From Candidatus Aldehydirespiratoraceae bacterium (GTDB lineage: Bacteria; Actinomycetota; Acidimicrobiia; Acidimicrobiales; Aldehydirespiratoraceae): a stretch of DNA of 64,000 nucleotides. Below the pieces are notes generated by a model, which did no database searches, was not told the origin of the DNA, and saw nothing but the letters and a program-made list of their open reading frames with translations. Where the stretch lies: NCBI GenBank assembly GCA_965249055.1, contig CBDFKX010000002.1, positions 1,936,830 to 2,000,829 on the forward strand, written 5' to 3'. This document shows, piece by piece, positions 4,989 through 46,728 of this stretch (the stretch's first letter is position 1; every line of letters starts with the position of its first letter). Position numbers and translations under genes: made by a program.

Positions 4989-5175
4989 CGCACTCTGTCC
5001 GCATCCGAGAGCGGTGGTCGGTGCATCCTCTGTAGCCTGTTGAGAGATCATTTGAAGATCGGTACCCCGCCGCCCCCTGACGTTCGGATGCTTTGTGCAA
5101 GTTCTGAAAAATGGAGTCTAGAACCTCCGCAAAGTGGAGTTTTGGACGGTGCGGATGCGGCCCATGTCGCTGTGA

Positions 5176-6042
5176 GAGTCGGGGGATTCCAGCGGAGAAG
5201 TATCCCTGGCCTCGCTGCTGGAAGGCGGACGCTGCGTGGCGAAAGATGTCGAACAGACCTACAGCGGCGTTGCTTCGGTGATCTGTCGAGGGGGTTGGCC
5301 CCGCATGATCAAGATGGCGCCGGACACGGCCCAAGCTCGCCTGCGTGACTATCTGGACAACATCACCCGCACCGACATTTCCCGAGTATCCGGCATCAAA
5401 CGCGACCCCCGGCTGGTGATGGCCCTGCTTGCATCCCTTGCCCGCAACGAAGCAACCGCCGCCTCCGGCGCTACCCTGATCAAGGATGTGGCCGGGGAAG
5501 CGGGCAACCCGCCGGCACGCTCCACGATTAGGGCCTACCTGGACGACTTGACCCGATTGTTCGTGCTTGAGCCCCTCCCGGCCTGGACCACCCATCTGAG
5601 ATCGTCGGCTCGTTTGAGAAAATCCCCGAAGCGGTTGTTCATCGACCCCTCGCTGGCCGTCGCCGCCTTGGCCGCGTCGGCGGGATCTGTCGCCCAAGAC
5701 AAGGAGGCGTTGGGGTTTCTGTTCGAATCGATGGCGATCCGTGACCTCCGGGTGTATGCCCAGTCGCTGGATGCCCACCTCTACTACTACGGAGATTCGA
5801 ATGGCCTCGAGGCTGATGTCGTGATCGAAGGATTGGACGGCCAATGGGCTGCCGTGGAGATCAAGCTCGGCGGAGGGAATGCTGTCGCCGGGGCCTTCGA
5901 ATCGCTTCGGGCAGTTCGCTCACAGATCGACACCACCCGGCGCGGAGAACCAGCCCGCCTCATCGTGCTCACCGCATTCGGCCACGGCTACCAGACCCAC
6001 GACGGCATCGCCGTCGTACCCCTGACCGCCCTCAAGCCCTGA
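5176..6042 (+). pseudogene. 5'-truncated AAA-ATPase/DUF4143-family gene. Only the C-terminal DUF4143 part is present.
   Basis: The ORF reads ...RGGWPRM...ARLRDYLDNI...LFIDPSLAVAAL...EALGFLFESMAIRDLRVYA...EADVVIE..., which matches the C-terminal two-thirds of COG1373-type ATPases. The Walker A/B N-terminal domain (about 150 aa) is missing, and the frame opens directly after a stop at 5173-5175. Confidence 0.6.
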
Positions 6043-6416
6043 ACGAGCACCGACGATGAACCTATAGGTCCCGGCGGATTTCCAGTTCCGGTCACCGATC
6101 CCCGCAGCCGCTACCGGCTCTGGCGAGCGACCGAGGTTGAGCACTGGATGCGAACCCACGTCGACGATGGGTATGAGACCCATGAGGACCACGTACGTGT
6201 GGCTATCAACGCCACTTTGGAGCTCCGCTACCACTCAAGCCACATTCCCGACGACCGGAGATCAAACCTGCTCGCTCTGGCCGGCCTGTAGACATGGACC
6301 GGTCTGGCTGGCCGTTTACCGATATATGACGTGAACTTGGATGCCGATGTCCTGAATTTTACATATACTTCATGATTTATGAGTGATTGTCACAGGGGGT
6401 CGATATAGTTACACCC

Positions 6417-7856
6417 ATGGAATTAGCCCCTGTTTCGGATCACTCGGACACCATCGCTGGTGGTGAGACGGCTGCTGGTGGCGTGGCTGTTGGTGGTGAG
6501 ACGGCTGCTGGTGGCGTGGCTGCCGGTGGGGTGGTTCATGTCGAGGTGGTGGATGTGGCCGCTTTGTGTGATGAGGGGTTGTCGTTGCGCCTGGGGGTGT
6601 TGGGTCGTGCTGAGTCTCGCTTGGCGGCGATGAAGGCGCAGGTGCTCGCTGAGGTTGGTCGTCGTCACAGCAAAGGCGATGCGCAGCGTATGGTTCGTGA
6701 CGAGTTGCAAGCCTCGAAGCGTGAGGCCAAACGCGATGTTGAGTCAGCGGCTCGGTTGGCGGAACTGCCCGCGACTAGTAAGGCGTTGGCGTCCGGTGAG
6801 ATCCCCCAAGGTCACGCTCGGTTGATTGCTCGGGCGTCGGGTGAGAGCACGATTGATGAAGAGCTGCTTGTTGAAGCAGCCAATACTGAGCCTTTTGATG
6901 AGTTCGCTAGGACTGTGAAACGTCATCAACAAGACCATGCCGACGATGACGGGCAGGCCTTGTTGGATCGTCAACGCAAGAACCGCAAAGCACGCATCTT
7001 TGAATCAGCCGAGTCCGGCATGTTCGTGCTGAGCGGTGAGTTTGATCAGATCACCGGAGCACGTATCGCTACCGCGTTGACCGCGAAAGAACGCCAGCTA
7101 TGGCACCGCGAGGACCCCAACAAGCGAGCCACGCCTCAGCAACGGATGGCTGACGCGTTGGCCGAGTTGATCTGCGAACCTGCTGGTGACGGCAAGTCTG
7201 CGGGCACTGATCTGTTGGTGATCGCTGATTTCGACGTGCTCAAGCAACAACTAGACAATCCCCGCCTCGCGGACGGTTCACCGATACCTGTCGTTGAGCT
7301 GCATCGCCTAGCCCTTGAAGCCAACTTGTTGCCTTCGATCTTTGACACCAAAGCCCAAGACATGTGGCTGGGCCGCCGGTTGCGGACCGCTTCTGAAGCT
7401 CAACGGGTCGCGTTGATCGCCCGTGATCAACACTGCATCGGCTGCGGGGCGAATCCGTTGTGGTGCCGAGCTCATCACATCATCTGGTGGTCAAAGAACG
7501 GACCCACCGACCTAGACAACCTGGTGTTGGTATGCGACGACTGCCACCACAAAATCCACGACCACGACTGGCAAGTCTACAAACACCCCGAAACCGGCAA
7601 ATACAAACTCAAACCCCCCAACCCAGCCGACACAGCAACCGCAGTCAACAAGGCAACTCCAACCTCATCCGGAGACCGGGCAGCAGCCGAAGTCAACTCG
7701 GCAACCCCAACCGGGCATCCGGGTGACCGCAAACGGGCAACCCCGGGCAGTCCAGCCGATGTCTTAAGACGCAACCGGACGGCGCAGGAACCAAACCCTC
7801 GGAGTGTGACTGCTTCGGAGGAGACTAGGGCAGGACCGGACTCAGAGCACAGGTAG
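6417..7856 (+). CDS. DUF222/HNH endonuclease (REP13E12-like family common in Actinobacteria)
   Basis: The C-terminal part reads DQHCIGCGANPLWCRAHHIIWWSKNGPTDLDNLVLVCDDCHHKIHDHDW (HNH). The N-terminal part is DUF222-like and helical. The start is uncertain (TTG 6387 or ATG 6417). The upstream region is AT-rich. Confidence 0.8.
   Translation: MELAPVSDHSDTIAGGETAAGGVAVGGETAAGGVAAGGVVHVEVVDVAALCDEGLSLRLGVLGRAESRLAAMKAQVLAEVGRRHSKGDAQRMVRDELQASKREAKRDVESAARLAELPATSKALASGEIPQGHARLIARASGESTIDEELLVEAANTEPFDEFARTVKRHQQDHADDDGQALLDRQRKNRKARIFESAESGMFVLSGEFDQITGARIATALTAKERQLWHREDPNKRATPQQRMADALAELICEPAGDGKSAGTDLLVIADFDVLKQQLDNPRLADGSPIPVVELHRLALEANLLPSIFDTKAQDMWLGRRLRTASEAQRVALIARDQHCIGCGANPLWCRAHHIIWWSKNGPTDLDNLVLVCDDCHHKIHDHDWQVYKHPETGKYKLKPPNPADTATAVNKATPTSSGDRAAAEVNSATPTGHPGDRKRATPGSPADVLRRNRTAQEPNPRSVTASEETRAGPDSEHR
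6456..6521 (+). repeat. 33-bp tandem duplication inside the HNH gene (AGGETAAGGVA x2)
   Basis: GCTGGTGGTGAGACGGCTGCTGGTGGCGTGGCT is repeated with one mismatch. Confidence 0.8.
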
Positions 7857-35765: not shown

Positions 35766-36536
35766 TTATGGCCATCGCCTAATCCACTCCCCGGGAGGAG
35801 CCAAGGCTTCATCGATGCAGGCCATCAGCGAAGGCTCCAGAAGGTCACGGAGATCGTCGATAATGGTGTCTCTGTCGGGCAGGTCTGCAAGACACCATCG
35901 GGCAAAGGATCCGTCGTCGAGCCACCCGGCGATCGACGGATCCATCCCGGGCCAGCGCGTGGTGGCGTTGGAGGCCCGATGGCGGAAGGCGTCCCAGCCC
36001 AAGGGGAGCCTCGATCGCCTATTGCGCAAGCGCCACGGTTCAATCGTCTCGTCTGTGAGGGGGTGAAGCACTGACATCGACGCCCAGCTAAGCGATTCCT
36101 CGGGTCCCGCGCGCAGCACGGCGCTTATTATCCCGTCAAGCCAGAACACATCCAATACATCGGATGGAGGGGTCGACTCGACTGGTGTGGCCATGCCCAA
36201 TACTCGTCGCCCAACATCAACGGCCGGACCGAGTTCTACCTCGATCGTCATCGGGCGATCCTGGCGAAGGTCGACGATTAGTGGAGCCTCCGTCCGGCTG
36301 ACGACGATGGCAATCTGGGTATCGCTGGGGTCACAGTCGATTAGACGGGCTGGGAGTGGGTAGGCGACGGCTTGCACGGCTGGGCCGCAGCGCACGCCCA
36401 CGAGGGGGCCGTAAGGATTCTGGTTGATGCCGGGTGGCGGGGGAATGGCAACAATCTCATCGGCTAGGGCGGCAACTCCGCAGTCGAGCGAAAGTGCGCG
36501 CCAGCCGAGAGATGAGGCGGATACGGACTGAGCCAT
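35766..36536 (-). CDS. Hypothetical protein (no family recognised)
   Basis: The ATG at 36536 is preceded by GGAGA. The ORF extends to 36620, but that upstream part is His/Arg-rich. Codon usage is consistent with the neighbours. Confidence 0.45.
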   Translation of the reverse strand: MAQSVSASSLGWRALSLDCGVAALADEIVAIPPPPGINQNPYGPLVGVRCGPAVQAVAYPLPARLIDCDPSDTQIAIVVSRTEAPLIVDLRQDRPMTIEVELGPAVDVGRRVLGMATPVESTPPSDVLDVFWLDGIISAVLRAGPEESLSWASMSVLHPLTDETIEPWRLRNRRSRLPLGWDAFRHRASNATTRWPGMDPSIAGWLDDGSFARWCLADLPDRDTIIDDLRDLLEPSLMACIDEALAPPGEWIRRWP

Positions 36537-36771
36537 CTTGGTCTCCGATTGATGTCGGTGGTGATGGCGGTCCAAACCCGGATCGCGAGGGAACCCAATC
36601 CTGGTCTGGGTGTGTGACACTGCTGAAGTCGCAGCACCGGCCGCCTAAGATTCGCCTGAGTACGGGAGTTCAGTTGTCCGATTGTCGCAAGCACAGCGCT
36701 ACCACGACCTTGAGCAAGGCTCCACACCAGTGCCTTGACATCAAACGGGTTGAGGCTTAGAGGCGCTGCTC

Positions 36772-37785
36772 ATGGCTACTGTCCGCACCGAAATCTCCGA
36801 AATAGTCACTGGGTTGGGTCTGTTCGGCTATCGAGATCTAGATCGAGCGCTTGCCGCTAGACCACGCTCGATCGGCAACGTCAATGACCGGGTGTTCGAC
36901 CGACTCGACACCGCCTACGCGGCTGACAAACATGCCGAGATATTCTCCACGGCGTACGCCAGCGGCGAGATATTTGCTCGGGCCAACGTTGGGCTGCGAG
37001 GTCGTGTGCCGTGGCTGGTCGAATGGAAAGGCCCTCATCGTCCGCCCGCGTACGAACAGATTCCTGCTGATTTGCGGGTCGATCACGTGTATTTGATCAG
37101 CTGCAAATACGGCTCGGACATTCTTCACAACGCATCTCCGTGGCATGTGTTCGACCGAGCTCTGGCGGAGCGTGCGAGACGTGGCGGTGATTGGTTTGCC
37201 GAAGTCGCCGCCGAGTCCTTTCAAGAGTTCTATTCCCAAGTGCGAAACCATGTGACCGACTTGTCGCTACCGACGCGGGTGACTGCGCTCAACGCAAACC
37301 ATCGAGCTGCGCTGCGCTCGGCGCTGAAGGGGCGGTGGCCGGCGTCGTTGCGTTATGACTGGGAACTCGTGGGGTTCGAGATTGCCCGTAACAGCGCTTC
37401 GCATCTCATGGAGCGCACCTCCAGCAGGAGAGATCGAGAGGAACTGCTGTGGAGGCTTCTGCGCCTCTCAGCCTCCCCATATTTCGTGCTTGGCACAGAC
37501 CGGAACGGGGAGCCGATCCGATACCGGGTGTTGACTCCGTGGGACTTCCAGAACCGCTTCCGTATGCGGCATTTCGACATGTGGGGAGACTATGCGGGTC
37601 AGCCGACCGTTCGGTGGCGCGCAGAGGTAGTCGATCGGGCAGACGCAACCCTCAGAACCGTGGAAGGCCATGTGGAGATTCGTTGGAGCCACGGCAAATT
37701 CGCCGGAGTTCCCGAAGCCAAAATCTATCTAGACACGCCCCACCACGATGTGGCTGGTTATGAGCCCATCGACAGTGGCAACTGA
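36772..37785 (+). CDS. Hypothetical protein; possible PD-(D/E)xK-like nuclease core (speculative)
   Basis: 337-aa ORF. The segment IPADLRVDHVYLISCKYGSD is loosely D...xK-like. Its stop codon lies inside the 7-bp target duplication of the downstream element. Confidence 0.5.
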   Translation: MATVRTEISEIVTGLGLFGYRDLDRALAARPRSIGNVNDRVFDRLDTAYAADKHAEIFSTAYASGEIFARANVGLRGRVPWLVEWKGPHRPPAYEQIPADLRVDHVYLISCKYGSDILHNASPWHVFDRALAERARRGGDWFAEVAAESFQEFYSQVRNHVTDLSLPTRVTALNANHRAALRSALKGRWPASLRYDWELVGFEIARNSASHLMERTSSRRDREELLWRLLRLSASPYFVLGTDRNGEPIRYRVLTPWDFQNRFRMRHFDMWGDYAGQPTVRWRAEVVDRADATLRTVEGHVEIRWSHGKFAGVPEAKIYLDTPHHDVAGYEPIDSGN

Positions 37786-37786
37786 T

Positions 37787-37808
37787 GGGGCTTATATACG
37801 TGAGTGAC
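37787..37808 (+). repeat. Left terminal inverted repeat of the 6.86-kb element
   Basis: Matches the right end over 22 nt, with a single 1-nt indel after the GGGG. Confidence 0.85.
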
Positions 37809-37858
37809 ATTTTCTGTCGGTTGTATCGACTGTTTTTGTGTGCTGAGCAGGGATTTAA

Positions 37859-39211
37859 AGCCTTCGCGGAAACGTGGGGTGGGGGGTGGTTGAGGGTCCC
37901 TGAGTAGGGGTCGAGGCCCTGCTGGAATCGGTGATTGAACGATCAACGATCTAGGAGGGCCCCGATGGCTAACGATGATATGCGTGTGCGGTTGCATTTG
38001 CGTGAGATACGTGTGGTTGAGGTGTTGGTGGACACGCCGAGCGTGTTGAGCGTGAGGGTCGAGTCGACGGTTAGGCATCCGCGGTGTGTGGTGTGCGGGT
38101 TCAAGTGTCACAGGGTGCATGACACCCGCGAGCGTGAGATACGCGACTTGGAAATATCGGGTCGTCGCACGGTGTTGGTGTGGTCTCGTCGCCGGTTGGC
38201 GTGCGATAACTGCGAGCATCGTTGGTTAGAGGAGCACAGCGAGTTCGACGGGCGCCTGACTCGCCGCCTGGCGCGGCGGCTGGTCGCGGACGCTGAGGTG
38301 ATGGCCATCTCAGCGGTAGCGCGCCGTCATGGTGTTGGCTGGCACACTGTGATGGCGTTGGTGAAAGCCTGGTCGGGACTGATTGCTGAGCATCGTCGTT
38401 CCCAGCGCTGTCGTGTGTTGCTGGTTGATGAGACCTCGATGCGCAAACGCCACCGTTACGTGACCGTCATCGTCAACGGCGACACCGGCAAGGTGTTGGC
38501 GATGGTCCCGCATCGCGACTGTGCTGCGTTGACAGGGTTTTTGATGTCGCAACCACATAGATGGCGCCGCGGGGTCAAAGTCGTCGTCACAGACGGATCA
38601 AAGGCCTACAAAGCCTCTGTGCAGACCTGTTTGCCCCACGCCCGTCATGTGCTTGACCGGTTCGGTGTGATCAGATGGTTCTGCACCGGGCTAACCGCGG
38701 TGCGCCGCGACATCCAACGCCGCGAACCACAAGGCGTCAAACCCGCATACGACCCAGAAGTGTTCCGATCCCGGTTCTTGCTGCTGCGCAGAGGCGACAA
38801 ACTCGAACCCGGCGACCAAGCCCGCCTCGATGAACTCTTCGAGGCTCACCCCCGTCTCAAAACCGGGTGGCAAGCTCTCCAGCAGCTCCACGGCCTTTAT
38901 CTTGCTGAGGACCACAACGGCACCCTGCAAGCCCTCAGCAGGTTCTGTGACCTCTACGAGACCGGCGAACTCCCCGAGTTCCATCACATCGTCGACACCA
39001 TCATCGCCTCATCAGACGAAATCTTGGCCTGGCACCACACCAACCGGGCCTCCAACGGCAGAATCGAGGGAACCAACAACCTGCTCCAAGTCCTACGAAG
39101 AACCGCCCACGGGTTCACCAACCCAACCAACTTCGCCGCCCGAGGACTCCTGATAACATGACCCACACACCGGCACCAGCAACCCCAAATCCCACGTTTC
39201 CGCGAAGGGCC
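37859..39211 (+). mobile_element. ISL3-family insertion sequence nested in the larger element
   Basis: The inverted ends are AGCCTTCGCGGAAACGTGGG (37859-) and CCCACGTTTCCGCGAAGGGCC (-39211). The 8-9-bp direct repeat (G)GGATTTAA lies at 37850-37858 and 39212-39220. Confidence 0.85.
37965..39161 (+). CDS. ISL3-family transposase
   Basis: AGGAGGG precedes the ATG at 37965. An N-terminal zinc-finger region is present (CVVCGFKCHRVHD...CDNCEH), followed by DETSMRKRHRYVTVIVNGDTGKVLAMVPHRD. Confidence 0.9.
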   Translation: MANDDMRVRLHLREIRVVEVLVDTPSVLSVRVESTVRHPRCVVCGFKCHRVHDTREREIRDLEISGRRTVLVWSRRRLACDNCEHRWLEEHSEFDGRLTRRLARRLVADAEVMAISAVARRHGVGWHTVMALVKAWSGLIAEHRRSQRCRVLLVDETSMRKRHRYVTVIVNGDTGKVLAMVPHRDCAALTGFLMSQPHRWRRGVKVVVTDGSKAYKASVQTCLPHARHVLDRFGVIRWFCTGLTAVRRDIQRREPQGVKPAYDPEVFRSRFLLLRRGDKLEPGDQARLDELFEAHPRLKTGWQALQQLHGLYLAEDHNGTLQALSRFCDLYETGELPEFHHIVDTIIASSDEILAWHHTNRASNGRIEGTNNLLQVLRRTAHGFTNPTNFAARGLLIT

Positions 39212-39236
39212 GGGATTTAAGCTATGTGCTAGAGGT

Positions 39237-39551
39237 ATGGTTTCCGAGCCTGATGAGGTTGCGTATTCGACTGCTGTGCGTGTGCAGTTGCCGAACCTCA
39301 ACAATGCCGCGAAGCATGATGTGTGGCGTGACCGTCAGATACAGGCACAGGGCTACAACTGGGGTGTCGAGCACGCGTTGGGGGTCTTCTTCGCAGATGA
39401 ACGTATCCAGTCGGCGCGGACGCATTCTCAACCGTTGACAAAGTACCGTCAGAAGGCTCCGTACACCACAGCATCCGCCACGACCGCAGCCCGCCTCGGC
39501 GCTCACTTGCTCACTTCGGCTCGGGCGCTGCTAGGTTCTTCGGTTCTATGA
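39237..39551 (+). pseudogene. Possible 5' fragment of a second tnpB-like gene
   Basis: AYSTAVRVQLPNLNNAAKHDVWRDRQIQAQGYNWGVEHAL resembles the TnpB N-terminal pattern (A-Y/F-x-x-R-L-x-P-N...Q...G..R..YN..L). The ORF stops after 104 aa, where the RCC1 gene starts. Confidence 0.35.
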
Positions 39552-42154
39552 CTGGAGCGACCATGACCTATGACGATGCTGCTGTTTCTGTGTGTGTGGG
39601 GGGCCGCGGTCGTGTCCGCCGGTCGTTGTCGATGTCGTTGTTGGTGGCGGCGTTGTTGGTGTGGGGGTTGTCTGCGGGGTCTACCGCTGGGGCGGTAGCA
39701 GGGTACGGCGACGTACCGGCGGGTGGGTACTTCGCTGAGCCCGTTCAATGGTCCGCCGACGAAGACATTACCGGGCTTTACGGTGCCTGTTTCGATCCCG
39801 ACGCCGAGGTGTCTCGCGGCGACTTCGCGGTGTACATCTGGAACATGGAAGGGTCGCCTACCGTCGGCGTGCCCGCCCACAAGTTCACCGATGTCGCCGC
39901 CGACGGCGAGGTGGCCACAGCCGTGTCGTGGATGGTTCACAAACAGATCACCACCGGCACCAGCGAGACGACGTTCTCGCCTGATGACACGTTGACACGG
40001 GCGCAAGCGGTGACGTTCCTGTGGCGTCTCGCCGACCGCCCCGCGGATGCTCCGGAGCATCCGTTCAGCGACGTGACCGCTCCGTGGCAGCAAGGGCCGG
40101 TCTCCTGGGCGGCGCACAACAAGATCACCACCGGCACCAGCGCGACGACGTTCACGCCTGACCGGGCGTTGACACGCGCGGAGGTAGTGACGTTCCTATG
40201 GCGCTACAACAACACACCAGCAGTAACCGTCGATCCAGCGTCGCCAGTATGCGCGCCGACGTTCCAGTCGGTCTCCGCCGGTAGTTGGCATTCGTGCGGG
40301 TTGCAGACCGACGGCACAGTCACCTGCTGGGGCAGAAACGACCACGGGCAGTCTGATGCGCCTGAGGGGACGTTCCAGTCGGTCTCCGCCGGTAGTTGGC
40401 ATTCGTGGGTCACGGGCGGTGGTTGGCATTCGTGCGGGTTGCGTACCGACAACACGGTCACCTGCTGGGGCCGGAACAGATACGGGGAGTCTGATGCGCC
40501 TGAGGGGTCGTTCCAGTCGGTCTCCGCCGGCGGTTTGCATTCGTGCGGGTTGCGTACCGACAACACGGTCACCTGCTGGGGCAGCAACGGCTACGGGCAG
40601 TTAGACGGGCTTGGGGCGATAATCCGGCCTGATCTGCTTGAAGCGCTTAGGGGATCGTTCCAGTCGGTCTCCGCCGGTGGTTGGCATTCGTGCGGGTTGC
40701 GTACCGACAACACCGTCGTCTGCTGGGGTGGCAACGACGTCGGGCAGTCTGATGCGCCTGAGGGGACGTTCCAGTCGGTCTCCTTCGGTAATTCGCATTC
40801 GTGCGGGTTGCGTACCGACGGCACCGTCGTCTGCTGGGGCGACAACGGCTCCGGGCAGTCTGATGCGCCTGAGGGGTCGTTCCAGTCGGTCTCCTTCGGT
40901 AGTTGGCATTCGTGCGGGTTGCGTACCGACGGCACCGTCGTCTGCTGGGGCGACAACGGCTCCGGGCAGTCTGATGCGCCTGAGGGGTCGTTCCAGTCGG
41001 TCTCGGTCGGCTATGGGTATTCGTGCGGTGTGCCTACCGACGGCACAGTCGTCTGCTGGGGCTACAACGACGACGGGCGGGCTGATGGGACGTTCCAGTC
41101 GGTCTCGGTCGGCCGTGGGCATTCGTGCGGTGTGCGTACCGACGGCACAGTCGTCTGCTGGGGCGACAACCGCTACGAGCAGAGGGTCACGCCTGGTCAC
41201 TCGTTCCAGTCGGTCTCCGCCGGTAATTTGCATTCGTGCGTGTTGCAGACCGACGGCACAGTCACCTGCTGGGGCAGAAACTTCGACGGGGAGTCCGTTG
41301 CGCCTGGGGGATCGTTCCAGTCGGTCTACGCCGGTGATGACTATTCGTGCGGTGTGCGGACCGACAACACGGTCACCTGCTGGGGCGTCTGGGCCGGTGC
41401 GCCTGAGGGGACGTTCCAGTCGGTCTCCTTCGGTTGGGGGCATTCGTGCGGTGTGCGTACCGACGGCACGGTCACCTGCTGGGGTTTGCTGTCTTATGCG
41501 CCTGAGGGATCGTTCCAGTCGGTCTCCGCCGGTAGGACGTTCCGGTTGGTCTCCTTCGGTAGTTGGTATTGGCATTCGTGCGGTGTGCGTACCGACAACA
41601 CCGTCACCTGCTGGGGCAGCAACAACTTCGGGCAGTCTGATGCGCCTAAGGGGACGTTCCAGTCGGTCTCCGCCGGCAGTTCGCATTCGTGCGGGTTGCG
41701 TACCGACAACACGGTCACCTGCTGGGGCAGAAACGACCACGGGCAGTCTATTGCGCCTGGGGGATCGTTCCAGTCGGTCTCGGTCGGTTGGGGGTATTCG
41801 TGCGGTGTGCGGACCGACAACACCGTCACCTGCTGGGGCAGAAACGACCACGGGCAGTCTGATGCGCCTGAGGGGACGTTCCAGTCGGTCTCCTTCGGTA
41901 ATTCGCATTCGTGCGGGTTGCGTACCGACAACACGGTCACCTGCTGGGGCAGCAGGGGCCGGCCTAGCCGCTCCAACAACGAGTACCCCAACCCCTGGCA
42001 GACTGATGCGCCTGAGGGGACGTTCCAGTCGGTCTCGGTCGGTAGTTGGCATTCGTGCGGTGTGCGTACCGACGGCACGGTCACCTGCTGGGGCAGCAAC
42101 CGCGACGGTTTTCGATACGTCGGGCAGTCTGATGCGCCTGGGGTGCTCGGTTAG
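39548..42154 (+). CDS. Secreted SLH-domain protein with 16 RCC1-like (beta-propeller blade) repeats
   Basis: Signal peptide (RRSLSMSLLVAALLVWGLSAGSTAGA) followed by three SLH-like segments (FTDV...TTGTSETTFSPDDTLTRAQAVTFLWR). Then 16 copies of FQSVSAGxxHSCG(L/V)RTD(G/N)TVTCWGxNxxGQSDAPEG. Confidence 0.85.
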   Translation: MTGATMTYDDAAVSVCVGGRGRVRRSLSMSLLVAALLVWGLSAGSTAGAVAGYGDVPAGGYFAEPVQWSADEDITGLYGACFDPDAEVSRGDFAVYIWNMEGSPTVGVPAHKFTDVAADGEVATAVSWMVHKQITTGTSETTFSPDDTLTRAQAVTFLWRLADRPADAPEHPFSDVTAPWQQGPVSWAAHNKITTGTSATTFTPDRALTRAEVVTFLWRYNNTPAVTVDPASPVCAPTFQSVSAGSWHSCGLQTDGTVTCWGRNDHGQSDAPEGTFQSVSAGSWHSWVTGGGWHSCGLRTDNTVTCWGRNRYGESDAPEGSFQSVSAGGLHSCGLRTDNTVTCWGSNGYGQLDGLGAIIRPDLLEALRGSFQSVSAGGWHSCGLRTDNTVVCWGGNDVGQSDAPEGTFQSVSFGNSHSCGLRTDGTVVCWGDNGSGQSDAPEGSFQSVSFGSWHSCGLRTDGTVVCWGDNGSGQSDAPEGSFQSVSVGYGYSCGVPTDGTVVCWGYNDDGRADGTFQSVSVGRGHSCGVRTDGTVVCWGDNRYEQRVTPGHSFQSVSAGNLHSCVLQTDGTVTCWGRNFDGESVAPGGSFQSVYAGDDYSCGVRTDNTVTCWGVWAGAPEGTFQSVSFGWGHSCGVRTDGTVTCWGLLSYAPEGSFQSVSAGRTFRLVSFGSWYWHSCGVRTDNTVTCWGSNNFGQSDAPKGTFQSVSAGSSHSCGLRTDNTVTCWGRNDHGQSIAPGGSFQSVSVGWGYSCGVRTDNTVTCWGRNDHGQSDAPEGTFQSVSFGNSHSCGLRTDNTVTCWGSRGRPSRSNNEYPNPWQTDAPEGTFQSVSVGSWHSCGVRTDGTVTCWGSNRDGFRYVGQSDAPGVLG

Positions 42155-42281
42155 GGCCGGTGGGGGTCGCCGGCTTAGGTTATTCGTGCGGTGTACGCAC
42201 CGACAACACGATCACCTGCTTCCACAACACGATCACCTGCTTCCACGAAAACGAGCACGGGCAGACTGATGCTCCGTAGAT
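40258..42281 (+). repeat. Tandem coding repeats of about 111 bp (RCC1-like blades), plus a decayed out-of-frame 17th unit after the stop
   Basis: Repeat units are near-identical at the DNA level. The remnant at 42155-42281 still reads YSCGVRTDNTITC..., contains an internal 18-bp duplication and ends HGQTDAP-stop. Confidence 0.85.
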
Positions 42282-42372
42282 CGTCGCCGTGAGCAGGGAT
42301 TACCCACCTCGATAGACGGTCGAGGTGCGCCGGTCGCCGTGAGTGGCCACAACCTCGCCGTGTAGTCGAGGG

Positions 42373-43092
42373 TTATACCTCGATGATGTCACCGCGGGCT
42401 GCTGCTGCCTCGGCGTCGAGGCGGGCTGTGGCGACCGCGCGGCGTGCCTGCGTGATCGACCAGACGCCGCGCCCTGTGGCTGTCGGCTGACCGTCGGCGG
42501 TAAGCCGGTCAGCGATCTGCTGCCAGGTCAGACCGGCTGCGCGGTGTCGCTCGATGATCGGAGCGGCTTGCCGTGTTGCCGGCGAGACGGGACCGCCGAG
42601 GCGCTGCCCGCGGCGTTTCGCCGCCGCGAGCGCGTCGATGGTGCGCTCGCGGGCTATGTCGCGCTCCCAGCGGGCGAGCCCGGCGAGCACGGTCAGCATG
42701 AGCCGACCGTTGATCGTCGCGGTGTCGAAGCCGAGATCGAGCACAGCCAGCGACCAGCCGCGGCGCTCGGCGCGCTCGGCGAGGACCAGCACGTCGGCGG
42801 CGCTGCGCCCGAGGCGTGAGATGGCCGACACGACCAGCACCGAGGCGTCGCCTGCGTCGAGCGCTGCCAACGCTCCGGAGAGGCCGGGCCGGTCGTCGGG
42901 CGCTACCGATCCGGACACGCCGTCGTCGACGACGACCGAGTGCGGCTGGTAGCCCTGGGCGACCGCGTAGGCGGTGGTGCGGTCGGTCTGTGCTTCGATG
43001 CCGAGCCCCGACGCTGCCTGATCGGCGGTGGATACGCGGATGTAGCAGATCGACGGGCGGGCGCTGGTTGTGTCTGTGGTGGTGGTGGTCAC
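42373..43092 (-). CDS. Small serine recombinase (resolvase/invertase type: N-terminal catalytic domain, C-terminal HTH)
   Basis: Motifs found: ICYIRVSTADQ (catalytic Ser), VVSAISRLGRS and GLARWERDIARERT, with a C-terminal HTH (LTWQQIADRL). The start is uncertain (GTG 43092 or ATG 43134). Confidence 0.85.
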   Translation of the reverse strand: MTTTTTDTTSARPSICYIRVSTADQAASGLGIEAQTDRTTAYAVAQGYQPHSVVVDDGVSGSVAPDDRPGLSGALAALDAGDASVLVVSAISRLGRSAADVLVLAERAERRGWSLAVLDLGFDTATINGRLMLTVLAGLARWERDIARERTIDALAAAKRRGQRLGGPVSPATRQAAPIIERHRAAGLTWQQIADRLTADGQPTATGRGVWSITQARRAVATARLDAEAAAARGDIIEV

Positions 43093-43122
43093 ACTCTGTA
43101 GTATACGTGTACGGACAAACGC

Positions 43123-44640
43123 GTGTACGCGCATCGCAAGGCAACCGAACGGACCGACGAACGTGTCGAACAGTTGACCGCCGCGACTGCCGGAACCACC
43201 CATGAAGGAGCCGTAGCAGCGGCGCTAGCAGCGCTTGTTTCGTGTCGTGCAGCACAGCAGCGTCGGCTGGCGTTAGCTGACACCAACGAAGGCGCGCTGT
43301 GGGGGCTGCGACCAACCCTGCCCGACCCGGCTCTGACCGGTTTGAGCGTCGATGAACGCTCTACCGCTATCTCTACCGCAGCGGACGCCGAAGTAACCGC
43401 AGCCGAGGAGTTGAAGACTACGCTGGGCATGATCCGTCCCGGCAAAGACAAGAAATTGAAAACAGCGGTGAACAAAACCGTCTCGGCGGTCGCCGCGGAG
43501 GCCAAAGCCGTCAAACGTCTCTGCGGCCACGTCGCCAAAGGCGAGAAACGGCTGTTTCGTTCTCGCAAAGAGACCGAACGCTGCTCCGGTCCGGCGTTGG
43601 TCTTGTTCGAGGGCTGTCGTGTCCGCGATGCTGTGTTGCGGCTCCCCGGCGGTACAGAAATCCCGTTGCCGACCGGGATCGAAACAGCCGACGACATCCT
43701 CGCCCAACATGACACACCTTTGGAGTGGAAAGGCGCAGCCCACGTCGTCGACGTGACAGACCTCGCAGGCAAAGTCACACGCCGGACCGAACCTGAGCAT
43801 CGCAAATACCATGTGCATTTTCTGTGCCGCGCCACCGCACCCGCACCGAAGCCGCCACGGACCGCGGATGAGTCGTTGGGCACCGACTGGGGTGTGACAA
43901 CCGCCCTCGTATGCAGCGACGGCTCCGCGTACGGTCTTTATCCCAACGAGAAGCAGCAACGCGCGAACCAGCAACGAGGCGACCAAGCAAAACAGCTACA
44001 GAAGTCGATGTCGAACAAGACGGCTGGTAGCCGCAGACACAACCAGCAGCGCCGTCGCCGTGCCCGGTTGATCGCCAAGAACACGAACGTGCGTGTCAAC
44101 CATCAACTCCACATCGCCAAAGATGTCGTCACCAAACCAGATCTCCGCAAGGTCGTCACCGAGGACACCAAAGCCGCGAACATGACCGCATCCGCGGTCG
44201 GAACCCGAGCGTTCCCGACACGAGGTTCCGCCGCGAAGACCGGACTGAACCGCAGCATCTTAGAGACTGCGCCGGCACGACAAACCGAGTTCATCGAACG
44301 CGCCGCTGTCCGGTACAGCGTCGCTACACAGCGGGAACATCCCGCTTACACATCGTTGACCTGTTTCGTTTGTGGAACGCTTGGAGATCGCGAGATTCAA
44401 GCGAAATTCAAATGTTCAGAGTGTTGTTCGTACACCCACGCGGATGTACAAGCATCGCTCAACACCAACGAAAAAGGCAACCCGAACCTGTATCCGGCAG
44501 GATCGGATATCGGCGGCAGGGACAGCCGTCGTAAGACGTTAGAACACGCCCTCGGGGTTTTCTTAGACTCCCAAGGTGTGGACGGAGGCGTCACAAACCA
44601 ATATGCGTCAGCAGCGACCGTCGGTCACTCACGTATATAA
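43123..44640 (+). CDS. tnpB: TnpB-like RuvC nuclease (IS605/IS607 OrfB family); appears to lack the canonical first 45 aa or so
   Basis: Motifs found: SLGTDWGV (RuvC-I Asp), KVVTEDTKAANM (RuvC-II Glu), the zinc finger CFVCG...CSECC and THADVQASLN (RuvC-III Asp). The motif KRLFRSRKE matches the conserved P-x-F-K-S-K-K region. The frame opens only 8 codons upstream of the GTG at 43123. Confidence 0.8.
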   Translation: MYAHRKATERTDERVEQLTAATAGTTHEGAVAAALAALVSCRAAQQRRLALADTNEGALWGLRPTLPDPALTGLSVDERSTAISTAADAEVTAAEELKTTLGMIRPGKDKKLKTAVNKTVSAVAAEAKAVKRLCGHVAKGEKRLFRSRKETERCSGPALVLFEGCRVRDAVLRLPGGTEIPLPTGIETADDILAQHDTPLEWKGAAHVVDVTDLAGKVTRRTEPEHRKYHVHFLCRATAPAPKPPRTADESLGTDWGVTTALVCSDGSAYGLYPNEKQQRANQQRGDQAKQLQKSMSNKTAGSRRHNQQRRRRARLIAKNTNVRVNHQLHIAKDVVTKPDLRKVVTEDTKAANMTASAVGTRAFPTRGSAAKTGLNRSILETAPARQTEFIERAAVRYSVATQREHPAYTSLTCFVCGTLGDREIQAKFKCSECCSYTHADVQASLNTNEKGNPNLYPAGSDIGGRDSRRKTLEHALGVFLDSQGVDGGVTNQYASAATVGHSRI

Positions 44641-44646
44641 GTCCCC
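44624..44646 (-). repeat. Right terminal inverted repeat of the 6.86-kb element
   Basis: See the left TIR. This repeat contains the tnpB-like stop codon (44638-44640) and the exonuclease stop codon (44625-44627). Confidence 0.85.
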
Positions 44647-45350
44647 AACTGATCAACCCCAGCCCGTGGTTGAGCGCGCCTTTGGATCAGGGCGCGAGCA
44701 AGGTGGGCATCGCTCACGACGTAGGTCCGGCGCTCGTCGTCGGACAGTTGATGGATGCGTTGTCGGTCGACCTCGACAACCTCCAGACCGACCAGACGAG
44801 CGAGGGGTTTGAGAGCACAGGAGATACCCAAGCTCGCACCGACGTCGGCTCTGAACACCTGGTAGGCATCGAGATGGCCGTGGCAGTGCCAGCGAGCCCG
44901 ATACCCGCCGACCAGGTGCTGCGGAGACTGGTGACCGCCTGGAATCAAAGGGTCGTGAACCAGACACAGCCCCAGAGGCACTCCGCAGACCGCCGCGCGT
45001 TCGCTGAGGAAGGGAAGGTCGAAACACCCCCCGTTCCAGGTCACCAGGATTCCAGGTTCCAGATCGGCCAGATGTTGGTCGAGTTCTACCAGCAAGTCCG
45101 ATTCTGCGCCGTCGAACACTGCGGAGAAGTCCTCGCCGACCAGCGCCGCAGCCAGCACCGGCGCGACCTGCGGATCGAGACCGTCGGTAGTGGTGTCGGT
45201 CTCGATGTCGAGGCCGTAGAGCGGTAGTCGTCGGTGCGCCGAAAGGAATTGAGCCGTAGGGGACCGGGCCGGAAGAGACTGACTGGACACGATGGTGGTG
45301 ATAGTAGGCGCACCCTGTGACGCGCGGCCCGTAGGTCGAGCCGTCTGCAC
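44625..45350 (-). CDS. DEDDy-type 3'-5' exonuclease (RNase H-like/PolB-exo-like fold)
   Basis: Motifs found: LYGLDIETD (ExoI), LVTWNGGCFDLPFL (ExoII) and YVVSDAHLARAL (ExoIII, YxxxD). The last six codons (GTYIRE-stop) are supplied by the TIR of the inserted element. Confidence 0.7.
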   Translation of the reverse strand: MQTARPTGRASQGAPTITTIVSSQSLPARSPTAQFLSAHRRLPLYGLDIETDTTTDGLDPQVAPVLAAALVGEDFSAVFDGAESDLLVELDQHLADLEPGILVTWNGGCFDLPFLSERAAVCGVPLGLCLVHDPLIPGGHQSPQHLVGGYRARWHCHGHLDAYQVFRADVGASLGISCALKPLARLVGLEVVEVDRQRIHQLSDDERRTYVVSDAHLARALIQRRAQPRAGVDQLGTYIRE

Positions 45351-45371
45351 CGGCGGATCTGAGCCGCCTGA

Positions 45372-45480
45372 GTCAGCTGAGAGTCAGCGTCACCAGGAAC
45401 TGCAGGACCTACACGTTCTCCGCGAGTCTGGACGAGCACGGCTGGGGTCAGTTGAGAGTCAGCGTCACCAGGAACTGCAG
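45372..45480. repeat. 34-bp direct repeat (one mismatch) duplicating the 3' end of the glutaminyl cyclase gene
   Basis: TCAGCTGAGAGTCAGCGTCACCAGGAACTGCAGG lies at 45372-45405 and TCAGTTGAGAGTCAGCGTCACCAGGAACTGCAGG at 45447-45480. The flanks are unrelated. Confidence 0.85.
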
Positions 45481-46728
45481 GGGCCAGTTCTTCCCGCCGA
45501 GGATCCACTCGCCGTCTCCGTTGTAGGCAATGCCGTTGAGCACCGTATGGCGTTCATCGGTCGAGACGCCGACTTCAGCGGCGAGCGATGCGGCGTCGAT
45601 TGACACCAGCACCTCTCCAGAATCGGGGTCGATGACGATGATCTCATTGGTCAGCCAGATGTTGGCGACAACCAGCCCCTCGACACATTCGAGTTCGTTG
45701 ATCCTTGTTACGGGCTCGTTGTTGCGTCGAATGGTCGTAGTCGCCACGACCGCGAAGTCCCTGCTGCGGTGGGTGAGTGTAGAGGTGCCGTCGCTCATCA
45801 ATAGACGCGAACTGCCGTCGTCCCAACAGATCCCCCAACCCTCGCCGTCGTAACGGTACTCTCCGAGCGGCTCGAAGGTGTCGCGGTCCCAGCGCAACGC
45901 CCGACCCTCGCGCCAACTGAGTTGAATAATCTCGTCACCGACCAGAGTCAGGCCCTCGCCGAACACCTCGGAGTCGAGCGCAACCGAGCGCAGTTCATCG
46001 GGGCCGTTGAGGGCACGCAGACGGGATTCTCCGTAGAGCCCGGTGCTCTCATAGATGATCCCGCCGTCAGTCTCAAGTCCTTGAGTGAAGGCTTCGGTGT
46101 TGTGACTCCATGAAGCTTCGATCTTCACCCGCCATTCTCGATCCTCAGCAGTGCGGGGATCTGCGGGCCACGGCGACACAGCGACCTCGCCCGGCAAAGT
46201 CGTACTGGTGGTCGAGCTCGTGCCGGTCGGAGTCGTGGTCGTCGCAGAGGTTGAGCCGGTGGACGGTGCCACGCCGGTGGTTGGCCTGGTGCCGGTGTCG
46301 ATGGACGGAGCCGCGCCGGTTGTCGGCGTCGTGCTGTCGTCGGAGGCCGTGTCGGTGGATGAGTTCGTGTCGGTGGATGAGTTCGTGTCGGTGGATGGGC
46401 TCGTGTCGGTGGATGAGTTCGTGTCGGTGGATGGGCTCGTGTCGGTGGATGGGTTCGTGTCGGTGGATGAACCCGTGTCGGTGTTTGACGTTGTGCTGTT
46501 GTCGGTGACCGTGTCGGTGGATGAACCCGCACCGGAGGTTGGCGTGGTGCTTCTGTCGGTAGCGAGGCTGGAGACCTCGGCGCTGTCGCTCGGGGTCGCC
46601 GTGGTTGAAGGGCTGACAACAGGCTCACCGACAGGCCGGTCACCGTCTGATCCAGCGCACGCCGAGGCAACGAGGCAACAGAGGCACACAACCGCACCGA
46701 GCGGGCCCCGGACGAGCCGGCGGATCAT
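45448..46728 (-). CDS. Lipoprotein: glutamine cyclotransferase (beta-propeller type) with a Ser/Thr/Asp-rich repeat linker
   Basis: Lipobox-like LVASAC and an (STDTN/STDTS)n linker. The C-terminal domain reads HNTEAFTQGLE...YESTGLYGESRLR...FGEGLTL...LSWREG...GWGI...LNGIAY. Confidence 0.75.
   Translation of the reverse strand: MIRRLVRGPLGAVVCLCCLVASACAGSDGDRPVGEPVVSPSTTATPSDSAEVSSLATDRSTTPTSGAGSSTDTVTDNSTTSNTDTGSSTDTNPSTDTSPSTDTNSSTDTSPSTDTNSSTDTNSSTDTASDDSTTPTTGAAPSIDTGTRPTTGVAPSTGSTSATTTTPTGTSSTTSTTLPGEVAVSPWPADPRTAEDREWRVKIEASWSHNTEAFTQGLETDGGIIYESTGLYGESRLRALNGPDELRSVALDSEVFGEGLTLVGDEIIQLSWREGRALRWDRDTFEPLGEYRYDGEGWGICWDDGSSRLLMSDGTSTLTHRSRDFAVVATTTIRRNNEPVTRINELECVEGLVVANIWLTNEIIVIDPDSGEVLVSIDAASLAAEVGVSTDERHTVLNGIAYNGDGEWILGGKNWPLQFLVTLTLN
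46349..46474 (-). repeat. 18-bp tandem repeat (about 7 units) encoding the STDTN/STDTS linker
   Basis: GTGTCGGTGGATGAGTTC and GTGTCGGTGGATGGGCTC units alternate. Confidence 0.8.

Follow-up and report, generated by a model that had tools for sequence, protein, structure and literature searches.

The subject of this study is a 6,860-bp insertion (positions 37787-44646) within a 64,000-nt stretch of DNA from Candidatus Aldehydirespiratoraceae bacterium (contig CBDFKX010000002.1), hereafter the window, to which all coordinates refer. The insertion separates a gene for a 337-aa protein from a gene for a PolB-exo-like 3'-5' exonuclease, and is bounded by 22-nt inverted repeats and a flanking direct repeat. 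The open reading frames (ORFs) inside encode an ISL3 transposase, an 868-aa protein with SLH domains and RCC1 repeats, a Resolvase-domain protein on the minus strand and a TnpB-like protein. Domain searches of these ORFs and tblastn revealed no cognate transposase within the element, as a first-pass annotation of this DNA had stated. We propose that the block is quite probably one copy of a non-autonomous transposon family of ~2 kb, composed of two 22-bp terminal inverted repeats (TIRs) of the IS1595 type, a single tnpB gene and a 3' region resembling an ωRNA. The features of the locus are as follows.

37779-37786, no strand: left copy of the 8-bp target-site duplication (TSD) CAACTGAT, holding the TGA stop of the 337-aa gene; single copy in two relatives (L122, L123)
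37787-37808, plus strand: left 22-nt TIR GGGGCTTATATACGTGAGTGAC, an IS1595-type end; the same 22-mer ends transposase-bearing insertion sequences (ISs) of the IS1595 family
37858-39211, plus strand: nested ISL3-family IS with its transposase ORF at 37935-39161, in the leader that runs from the left TIR to the tnpB start
39237-39471, plus strand: N-terminal fragment of tnpB, about residues 11-84 of full-length homologues, after which the ORF leaves homology and enters the insert
39472-43113, no strand: secondary insert of ~3.66 kb that splits tnpB and replaces ~100 nt of it; boundaries within about ±15 nt
39548-42154, plus strand: gene for the 868-aa SLH and RCC1-repeat surface protein, inside the secondary insert; 16 stretches of RCC1_2, two of SLH, 111-nt repeat units
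42373-43203, minus strand: small serine recombinase of the resolvase/invertase type (Resolvase, 123 bits), inside the secondary insert
43114-44640, plus strand: C-terminal tnpB fragment that begins at about homologue residue 108 and reaches the end; open 505-codon ORF from GTG 43123
44400-44645, plus strand: putative ωRNA-like scaffold overlapping the tnpB 3' end; in its last predicted helix, AAUAUGCG pairs with the right TIR
44624-44645, minus strand: right 22-nt TIR (reverse complement GGGACTTATATACGTGAGTGAC), from repeat and mismatch searches
44646-44653, no strand: right copy of the TSD CAACTGAT; single copy in relatives
44625-45350, minus strand: flanking exonuclease gene, its last six codons replaced by the insertion (GTYIRE for PLSIGS)

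The left repeat has its inverted partner at 44624-44645/6, and AACTGAT lies directly outside both ends. In a repeat search of the window the pair was recovered as 22 nt long and 95% complementary. The 22-mer occurs at only these two sites in the window when up to three mismatches are allowed, and still at only these two with up to six; at up to three mismatches, 100 dinucleotide shuffles gave none. The ends had first been read as TIRs with a 1-nt indel flanked by a 7-bp duplication. The repeats stand, but the indel is unneeded: the same bases are better read as a pair of 22-nt TIRs that differ by one mismatch, with an 8-bp TSD outside them, because that geometry is common to every related element examined.

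Close relatives retain the site in its empty form. Homologues of the flanking 337-aa protein that are 93% and 91% identical (P0058, P0061) lie on contigs (L122 and L123, respectively) in which the gene for this protein and the exonuclease gene are convergent, overlap by 28 nt and have nothing between them. The closest relative found, L122, is collinear with the window up to 37786 and again from 44647, at 88-93% identity, and has one target copy (..GACAGCGGAAACTGATCAACCCCAGCC..); L123 likewise has a single one. The single-copy target sequences are AAACTGAT in L122 and TAACTGAT in L123, and the wider contexts of the empty sites in relatives read ..GGAAACTGATCAACC.. and ..GGTAACTGATCGACC... That the insertion is true is confirmed by the empty site in the relatives and by the alignment, which breaks exactly at 37786/44647. 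The first-pass annotation, which had deduced an insertion bounded by TIRs and a target duplication and had predicted this empty site in close relatives, was correct on both points. It had also predicted that the exonuclease would end ..VDQLPLSMGS at the empty site, which is close to the relative's ..VDQFPLSIGS; in the window the protein ends ..VDQLGTYIRE. The landing site is the 28-nt overlap of the convergent genes (36772-37785 and, on the minus strand, 44625-45350). The length of the exonuclease gene is unchanged, its final six residues now being TIR-encoded, and the stop of the 337-aa gene sits in the TSD and so is preserved.

A comparison with tnpB elements elsewhere delimits what was inserted. 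The window TnpB has 57 homologues of 600-640 aa, the nearest ~60% identical. At five homologue loci on Acidimicrobiia-like contigs (L120, L121, L181, L182 and L183) the element is ~1.97 kb long, contains tnpB only and ends in the same 22-nt TIR, of the form GGGAC/GGGAA-TTATATAC-N-TGAGTGAC. Direct repeats flank all five, four of them perfect over 8 bp and the fifth matching at 7 of 8 positions: AAACGGAT at L120, CTACCATG at L121, AAATGTTT at L181, AATATGAG/AGTATGAG at L182 and AAAGCAAT at L183. Across phyla the C-terminus of TnpB, ..GHSRI or ..GHSGI before the stop, is encoded by the right TIR; in the window the TAA stop of tnpB (44638-44640) lies inside it. The first-pass annotation had taken a 22-mer that belongs to conserved gene ends as a sign against mobility. 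Literally the 22-mer is such a sequence, since the right TIR encodes ..GHSRI and the stop, but this arises because the TIR overlaps both tnpB and the ωRNA-like region, and it is no argument against mobility.

Measured against these relatives, the window copy is a degenerate, twice-interrupted tnpB element, and it is dead. One interruption is the ISL3 IS, whose host site is the leader of 58 nt between the left TIR and the tnpB ATG. It has all the features of its family, namely DDE_Tnp_ISL3 (189 bits), Zn_ribbon_ISL3 and HTH_Tnp_ISL3 domains, inverted repeats of its own and an 8-bp TSD, GGGATTTA, at 37850-37857 and 39212-39219, as had been noted at first pass. The other interruption splits tnpB itself. 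The N-terminal piece was recognised by tblastn with four homologues (P0002, P0004, P0008 and P0019; 52-59% identity, E 1e-17 to 1e-20), which places about residues 11-84 at 39225-39455, with the start ATG at 39237. In a DNA alignment with L181, positions 95-325 of that element correspond to window 39241-39471, and the alignment resumes at its position 403, window 43124. The intervening insert is missing from all canonical family members compared, and its GC content is 63-70% (69-70% at the recombinase end) against 58-62% nearby. The resolvase and the SLH/RCC1 protein had been counted among the element's own genes. That assignment does not hold: both would be intruders, later than the tnpB element, and not native cargo, because both lie inside the insert that splits tnpB and both are lacking in the canonical relatives, the five ~1.97-kb elements being tnpB-only. 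More RCC1 repeat units, out of frame, follow the SLH/RCC1 stop (42168-42280). Most of the 3.66-kb module is bracketed by an inverted repeat of 19 nt (39484-39502 and 42413-42431); the module could represent either a surface-protein cassette under invertase control or a mobile unit carried by a recombinase.

Which transposase recognises the ends? The same 22-nt ends were found on insertion sequences that encode one. The 22-mer terminates a 1.2-kb IS in an Acidobacteriota genome (L093); the 331-aa protein of this IS carries DDE_Tnp_IS1595 (135 bits) and Zn_ribbon_IS1595 domains and scores 181 bits on the NCBIfam model transpos_IS1595 (cut-off 75). Two further ISs are complete. One, L169, is 1,501 bp long, with TIRs GGGAATTATATACGTGAGTGAC and GGGAATTATATAGATGACTTAC and the perfect TSD TATCCAAA; the other, L190, is 1,787 bp long, with GGGAATTATATACGTGAGTGAC at one end, a close variant at the other and the perfect TSD TTTTGAAT. 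Their transposases have the same two domains, those of L093, L143 and L150 are similar, and the transpos_IS1595 scores for the transposases of these ISs range from 181 to 198 bits. GGGAATTATATACGTGAGTGAC ends all five ISs (L169, L190, L093, L143 and L150), and the window TIRs differ from it at one or two positions. A looser search with the 17-mer gave 57 loci, seven of which had the full GGGAA-prefixed end; three of the seven (L143, L150 and L169) adjoin a transposase gene, and the remaining 17-mer loci are mostly chance matches lacking the GGGAA prefix. L190 lies on an IMG/VR contig classed as viral (IMGVR_UViG_3300047335_000031, 5165-6951), which suggests a possible route for spread between phyla. 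Other IS1595-family elements that were considered as a match, namely the two high-GC candidates L187/L188 and L189, and also L191, were rejected, their TIRs being different or undetected. L187 and L188 (ENA ERZ19489113 s307.ptg000343l, 65% GC) hold one copy each of a 2.8-kb transposon of the IS1595 family with the TIR GGGGATTACATACTTGACTAGC. Its passengers include a DNA methylase, and the flanks of the two copies look exchanged, as after an inversion between them.

A motif scan with the 17-mer core TTATATACGTGAGTGAC, using one genome per species, listed at least 119 loci, most of them from a single Rhodothermales metagenome-assembled genome, OY760427.1 (5.9 Mb, sponge-associated; L002-L119). 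Here the motif terminates a repeated ~1.46-kb element whose sole gene is a tnpB ending ..VGHSRI, the window's C-terminus, with its stop within the repeat. In ~0.8 Mb of sampled OY760427.1 DNA there are at least 121 right-end copies of this element and at least 16 transposase genes of the IS1595 type. The corresponding IS is 1.77 kb long (for example, L006 91-1864), and the tnpB element's left end very nearly matches one TIR of this IS together with the adjoining 16 subterminal nt. IS, 470 nt and tnpB element also form a composite of 3.7 kb, present in ~10 copies and flanked by perfect 8-bp TSDs of its own at at least seven sites. The IS1595-type IS and the tnpB element are thus co-mobilised in this genome. 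Perfect 8-bp TSDs flank 44 end pairs (tnpB elements and composites), and their consensus, T-W-W-N-N-T-T-W, is palindromic and AT-rich, which is what a DDE transposase that prefers symmetric targets should leave.

The 22-mer also occurs singly beside ordinary genes in genomes of Rhodobacteraceae, Dehalococcoidia, Latescibacterota and Methylococcaceae (L011, L054, L079 and L080), where neither tnpB nor a transposase is close by, and in Ca. Spongiisocius (L033) a copy is the degraded 3' end of a tnpB (..CHSRI before the stop). These five are probably remnants or small miniature inverted-repeat transposable elements; the first four were rejected as marks of autonomous elements, their interiors being ordinary genes.

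Since the ends are shared with transposase-bearing ISs, are flanked by 8-bp TSDs, move as part of a composite and agree with the description of the family, we read them as IS1595-type, and consider it likely that the tnpB elements are non-autonomous passengers of that transposase. The window element has the GG-starting shared TIR and the 8-bp TSD of an IS1595 derivative. It encodes no DDE_Tnp_IS1595 transposase, for which reason we file it as non-autonomous and not as an IS1595 member proper. The first-pass annotation had left open a non-autonomous derivative of an undescribed TIR transposon family. The first part is borne out by the tnpB-only relatives and the absence of a transposase gene inside the element; the second is not, as the search for the TIR in other genomes, which it had recommended, turned up transposase-bearing copies (L169, L190 and L093), and the same 22-nt TIR and 8-bp TSD belong to IS1595 ISs.

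The window TnpB ORF carries Cas12f1-like_TNB and OrfB_IS605 domains, the latter at just 29 bits. Its fragment scores 115 bits on the NCBIfam model guided_TnpB (cut-off 100), on which the homologue P0004 scores 130. The D/E/D motifs of RuvC (GTDWG, xxED and HADxQA) and a CxxC..CxxC zinc finger are kept, and align with the corresponding motifs of the solved TnpB-like protein PDB 9j09. By its RuvC domain, zinc finger and family model the protein belongs with TnpB/OMEGA nucleases, although the window gene is split; the activity of such a TnpB would presumably be RNA-guided. The clade is long (~620 aa), with an extra segment of ~200 aa, and was seen only in uncultured genomes; a tblastn search of PLSDB plasmids with TnpB found only distant, generic TnpBs (at most 36% identity). 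At the RNA level, the last 245 nt of six elements yield a consensus fold of seven helices. This fold has 16 compensatory pairs, compared with 7.6±1.8 in column shuffles (none of 500 reaches 16) and 3-7 when slid, the counts coming from six sequences in a coding region. In its last helix, AAUAUGC(C/G) pairs with (G/C)GUAUAU of the right TIR, and the upstream base changes together with the C/G polymorphism in the TIR. An Rfam scan of 36500-45500 at E≤1 gave no match. The covariation is suggestive of a right TIR that forms part of an ωRNA-like 3' structure, and with the TIR in the last helix of the scaffold the guide would come from the TSD and the flank.

Several observations weigh against this interpretation. 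By tblastn there is no IS1595-family transposase in the element or in the whole window, and none lies within ±6 kb of L120, L121, L181, L182 and L183. The exact 22-mer of the Acidimicrobiia TIR (GGGAC...) had no matches in JGI metagenome contigs, and among the loci compared the GGGAC variant was not seen on a transposase-bearing IS. The IS1595 partner in the window's own lineage is therefore proposed from other genomes only. Part of the conservation of the TIR could stem from constraints on tnpB and the ωRNA and not from transposase binding. Finally, the ωRNA fold comes from six sequences, overlaps coding sequence and was evaluated on the same sequences from which it was derived.

Based on these comparisons, we propose the following mechanism. 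Movement would most likely take place in trans, with an IS1595-family DDE transposase binding the 22-bp ends. Insertion by an 8-bp staggered cut would then produce the CAACTGAT duplication, presumably within a cut-and-paste mechanism. The right TIR would serve several functions at once, providing the last codons and the stop of tnpB as well as the last helix of the predicted guide-RNA scaffold, and the guide may be read from the TSD and the DNA next to it, an arrangement described for Fanzor1 elements of eukaryotes. The window copy, which landed in the 28-bp overlap of two convergent chromosomal genes, is now degenerate, with an ISL3 element in its leader and the 3.66-kb module in place of ~100 nt of tnpB, splitting the gene. 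TnpB and its RNA would be a selfish passenger of a TSD-making transposon. More tentatively, and with slightly less than even confidence, we suggest that bacterial transposons of the IS1595/Merlin type captured an OMEGA module, that the TIR became the last helix of the ωRNA and the final tnpB codons, and that tnpB-only derivatives proliferate by means of the IS transposase.

Could the element instead be moved by a transposase that we have not recognised? The long ~620-aa TnpB-like protein, with its RNase-H-like RuvC fold, might for instance itself transpose, in which case the likeness of the ends to IS1595 would be convergent or driven by the guide RNA. All six copies of the Acidimicrobiia type carry just tnpB, with no transposase within ±6 kb, and the clade is divergent (29 bits on OrfB_IS605; extra segment of ~200 aa), both of which fit such a scenario. 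However, the 22-nt TIR is shared, with the window only one or two positions off, with bona fide IS1595 ISs that make the same 8-bp TSD, and the left end of the Rhodothermales tnpB element copies the IS end beyond the TIR, both moving as a composite. The protein also keeps the canonical D/E/D residues and zinc finger of TnpB and passes the guided_TnpB cut-off, and we know of no TnpB that transposes DNA. We therefore regard an unrecognised transposase as unlikely.

Less probable still, to the point of being very improbable, is mobilisation by the resident serine recombinase, according to which the element would be an IS607-like or a Tn3-like (TnpR-bearing, GGGG-ended) derivative and the 7-8-bp repeat a recombination core. 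This explanation draws on the position of the Resolvase-domain gene next to tnpB, on the pairing of a serine recombinase with TnpB in IS607, and on the inverted repeats of the Tn3 family, which start with GGG(G) like the TIR here. Nevertheless, the recombinase gene lies inside the insert that splits tnpB and is present neither in the five canonical relatives nor in the Rhodothermales copies, so that family comparison largely refutes its involvement. The gene is oriented divergently to tnpB, and the catalytic domain is N-terminal in the ORF (residues 52-200, followed by a short C-terminal tail), the true start probably being near 43134. Its score on the IS607 transposase model, transpos_IS607, is 31 bits against a cut-off of 110, and consequently it does not qualify as an IS607 TnpA. 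Its closest plasmid matches are ~40% identical and annotated 'recombinase family protein'; to judge from its sequence, it is a generic small serine recombinase. In IS607 elements a serine TnpA that begins with a MerR-like DNA-binding domain is encoded upstream of tnpB in the same orientation, and TIRs and a TSD are lacking. Membership of IS607 was rejected on these grounds and on the presence of TIRs and a TSD. IS200/IS605, elements with no TIR, no TSD and a Y1 (HUH) TnpA or its hairpin ends, was rejected likewise, TIRs and a TSD being present and no Y1 transposase being found among the ORFs. Tn3-family elements have inverted repeats of ~38 bp, a 5-bp TSD and a large DDE TnpA; here the TIR is 22 bp long with no similarity beyond, the TSD is 8 bp and no large TnpA occurs among the ORFs. 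The earlier judgement that the element fits neither IS605/IS607 nor Tn3 is upheld. A reading of the direct repeat as the core site of a tyrosine recombinase was also considered and rejected.

That the 22-mer is a repetitive extragenic palindromic (REP)-like or chance motif and the block no transposition product, a caveat raised at first pass to which the solo 22-mers in several unrelated genomes (L011, L054, L079 and L080) might lend some colour, is refuted as nearly as can be by the zero chance matches expected in the window, the precise break against the empty site with its target duplication, and the dozens of copies elsewhere with perfect 8-bp TSDs.

What are the implications of a tnpB passenger with IS1595-type ends? 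Our interest lies in the family more than in the dead, twice-interrupted window copy. The many natural copies of this tnpB-IS1595 family have exact ends, TSDs and empty sites, and the transposase partner is clear in at least one genome; the family might also be a source of a compact nuclease clade. Two lessons emerge for annotation: a TIR element without a transposase can be resolved through the same ends on an autonomous IS elsewhere, and the genes that such an element encloses, in this case those for the resolvase and the surface protein, may be intruders and not cargo.

How does the element compare with known systems? Elements of the IS200/IS605 type (including the tnpB-only IS1341) and of IS607 have no TIRs and produce no TSD (PMC13565253; for IS607 in particular also PMC6188088). 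Like the window element they encode TnpB; in them the gene's 3' end, at the right end of the element, overlaps a region coding for RNA, as it is predicted to do here. They use a Y1 or serine TnpA, whereas the window element has TIRs of 22 bp, a TSD of 8 bp and neither type of TnpA. TnpB is thought to restore IS605/IS607 elements after scarless excision; the question why a TSD-making DDE transposon would keep it has been discussed (PMC13565253).

IS1595-family elements, relatives of the eukaryotic Merlin transposons with GG-terminal TIRs, are usually flanked by 8-bp TSDs (PMC8101967). The window element shares GG-starting TIRs, the 8-bp TSD and the TIR sequence with this family and differs from it in carrying tnpB in place of the transposase.

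Association of TnpB with DDE transposases is itself known. The closest published kind comprises six branches of DDE-associated TnpBs with inverted terminal repeats, reported together with solo TnpBs that are flanked by nearly identical ends; for some TnpBs, mobilisation by a transposase from another locus was suggested (Altae-Tran et al. 2023, PNAS, PMC10691335). The present family is similar in placing tnpB between inverted terminal repeats, in a 3' end of the gene within 250 bp of the transposon end, which it overlaps here, and in solo-tnpB copies whose ends are like those found with a transposase, an arrangement that implies movement in trans. The distinguishing features are more than 100 copies in one genome, where that study reports no TnpB clusters of more than 30 copies, a partner of the IS1595 family and a long TnpB clade. 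A 2026 review names ISL2, IS630 and IS1031 as DDE partners (Kojima, PMC13565253). IS1595 does not appear in the available portions of the main text of either publication, and among papers that mention both IS1595 and TnpB none takes their link as its subject, as far as titles and abstracts indicate. The suggestion at first pass of a new way of mobilising tnpB can thus be retained only in part: DDE-dependent mobilisation in trans was published in 2023 (PMC10691335), while IS1595 is not named in the main texts as available. Both the IS1595 partnership and the fusion of TIR and ωRNA may be undescribed.

A parallel to the right end is found in eukaryotes, where the TIR and TSD of Fanzor1 elements are predicted to be part of the reRNA (PMC10711439). 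Like Fanzor1 and Fanzor2* elements, the window element joins a TnpB-type nuclease to TIRs and a TSD, is non-autonomous, as those often are, and has a TIR predicted to lie in the guide-RNA scaffold (PMC10711439); unlike them, it is prokaryotic and belongs to a bacterial TnpB clade. If the tentative capture scenario is true, TnpB would have a DDE partner not described before and Fanzor1 a counterpart in bacteria, tractable for examining the role of the nuclease in a transposon that makes TSDs and double-strand breaks. The family would also constitute a good bacterial model for a Fanzor-like arrangement.

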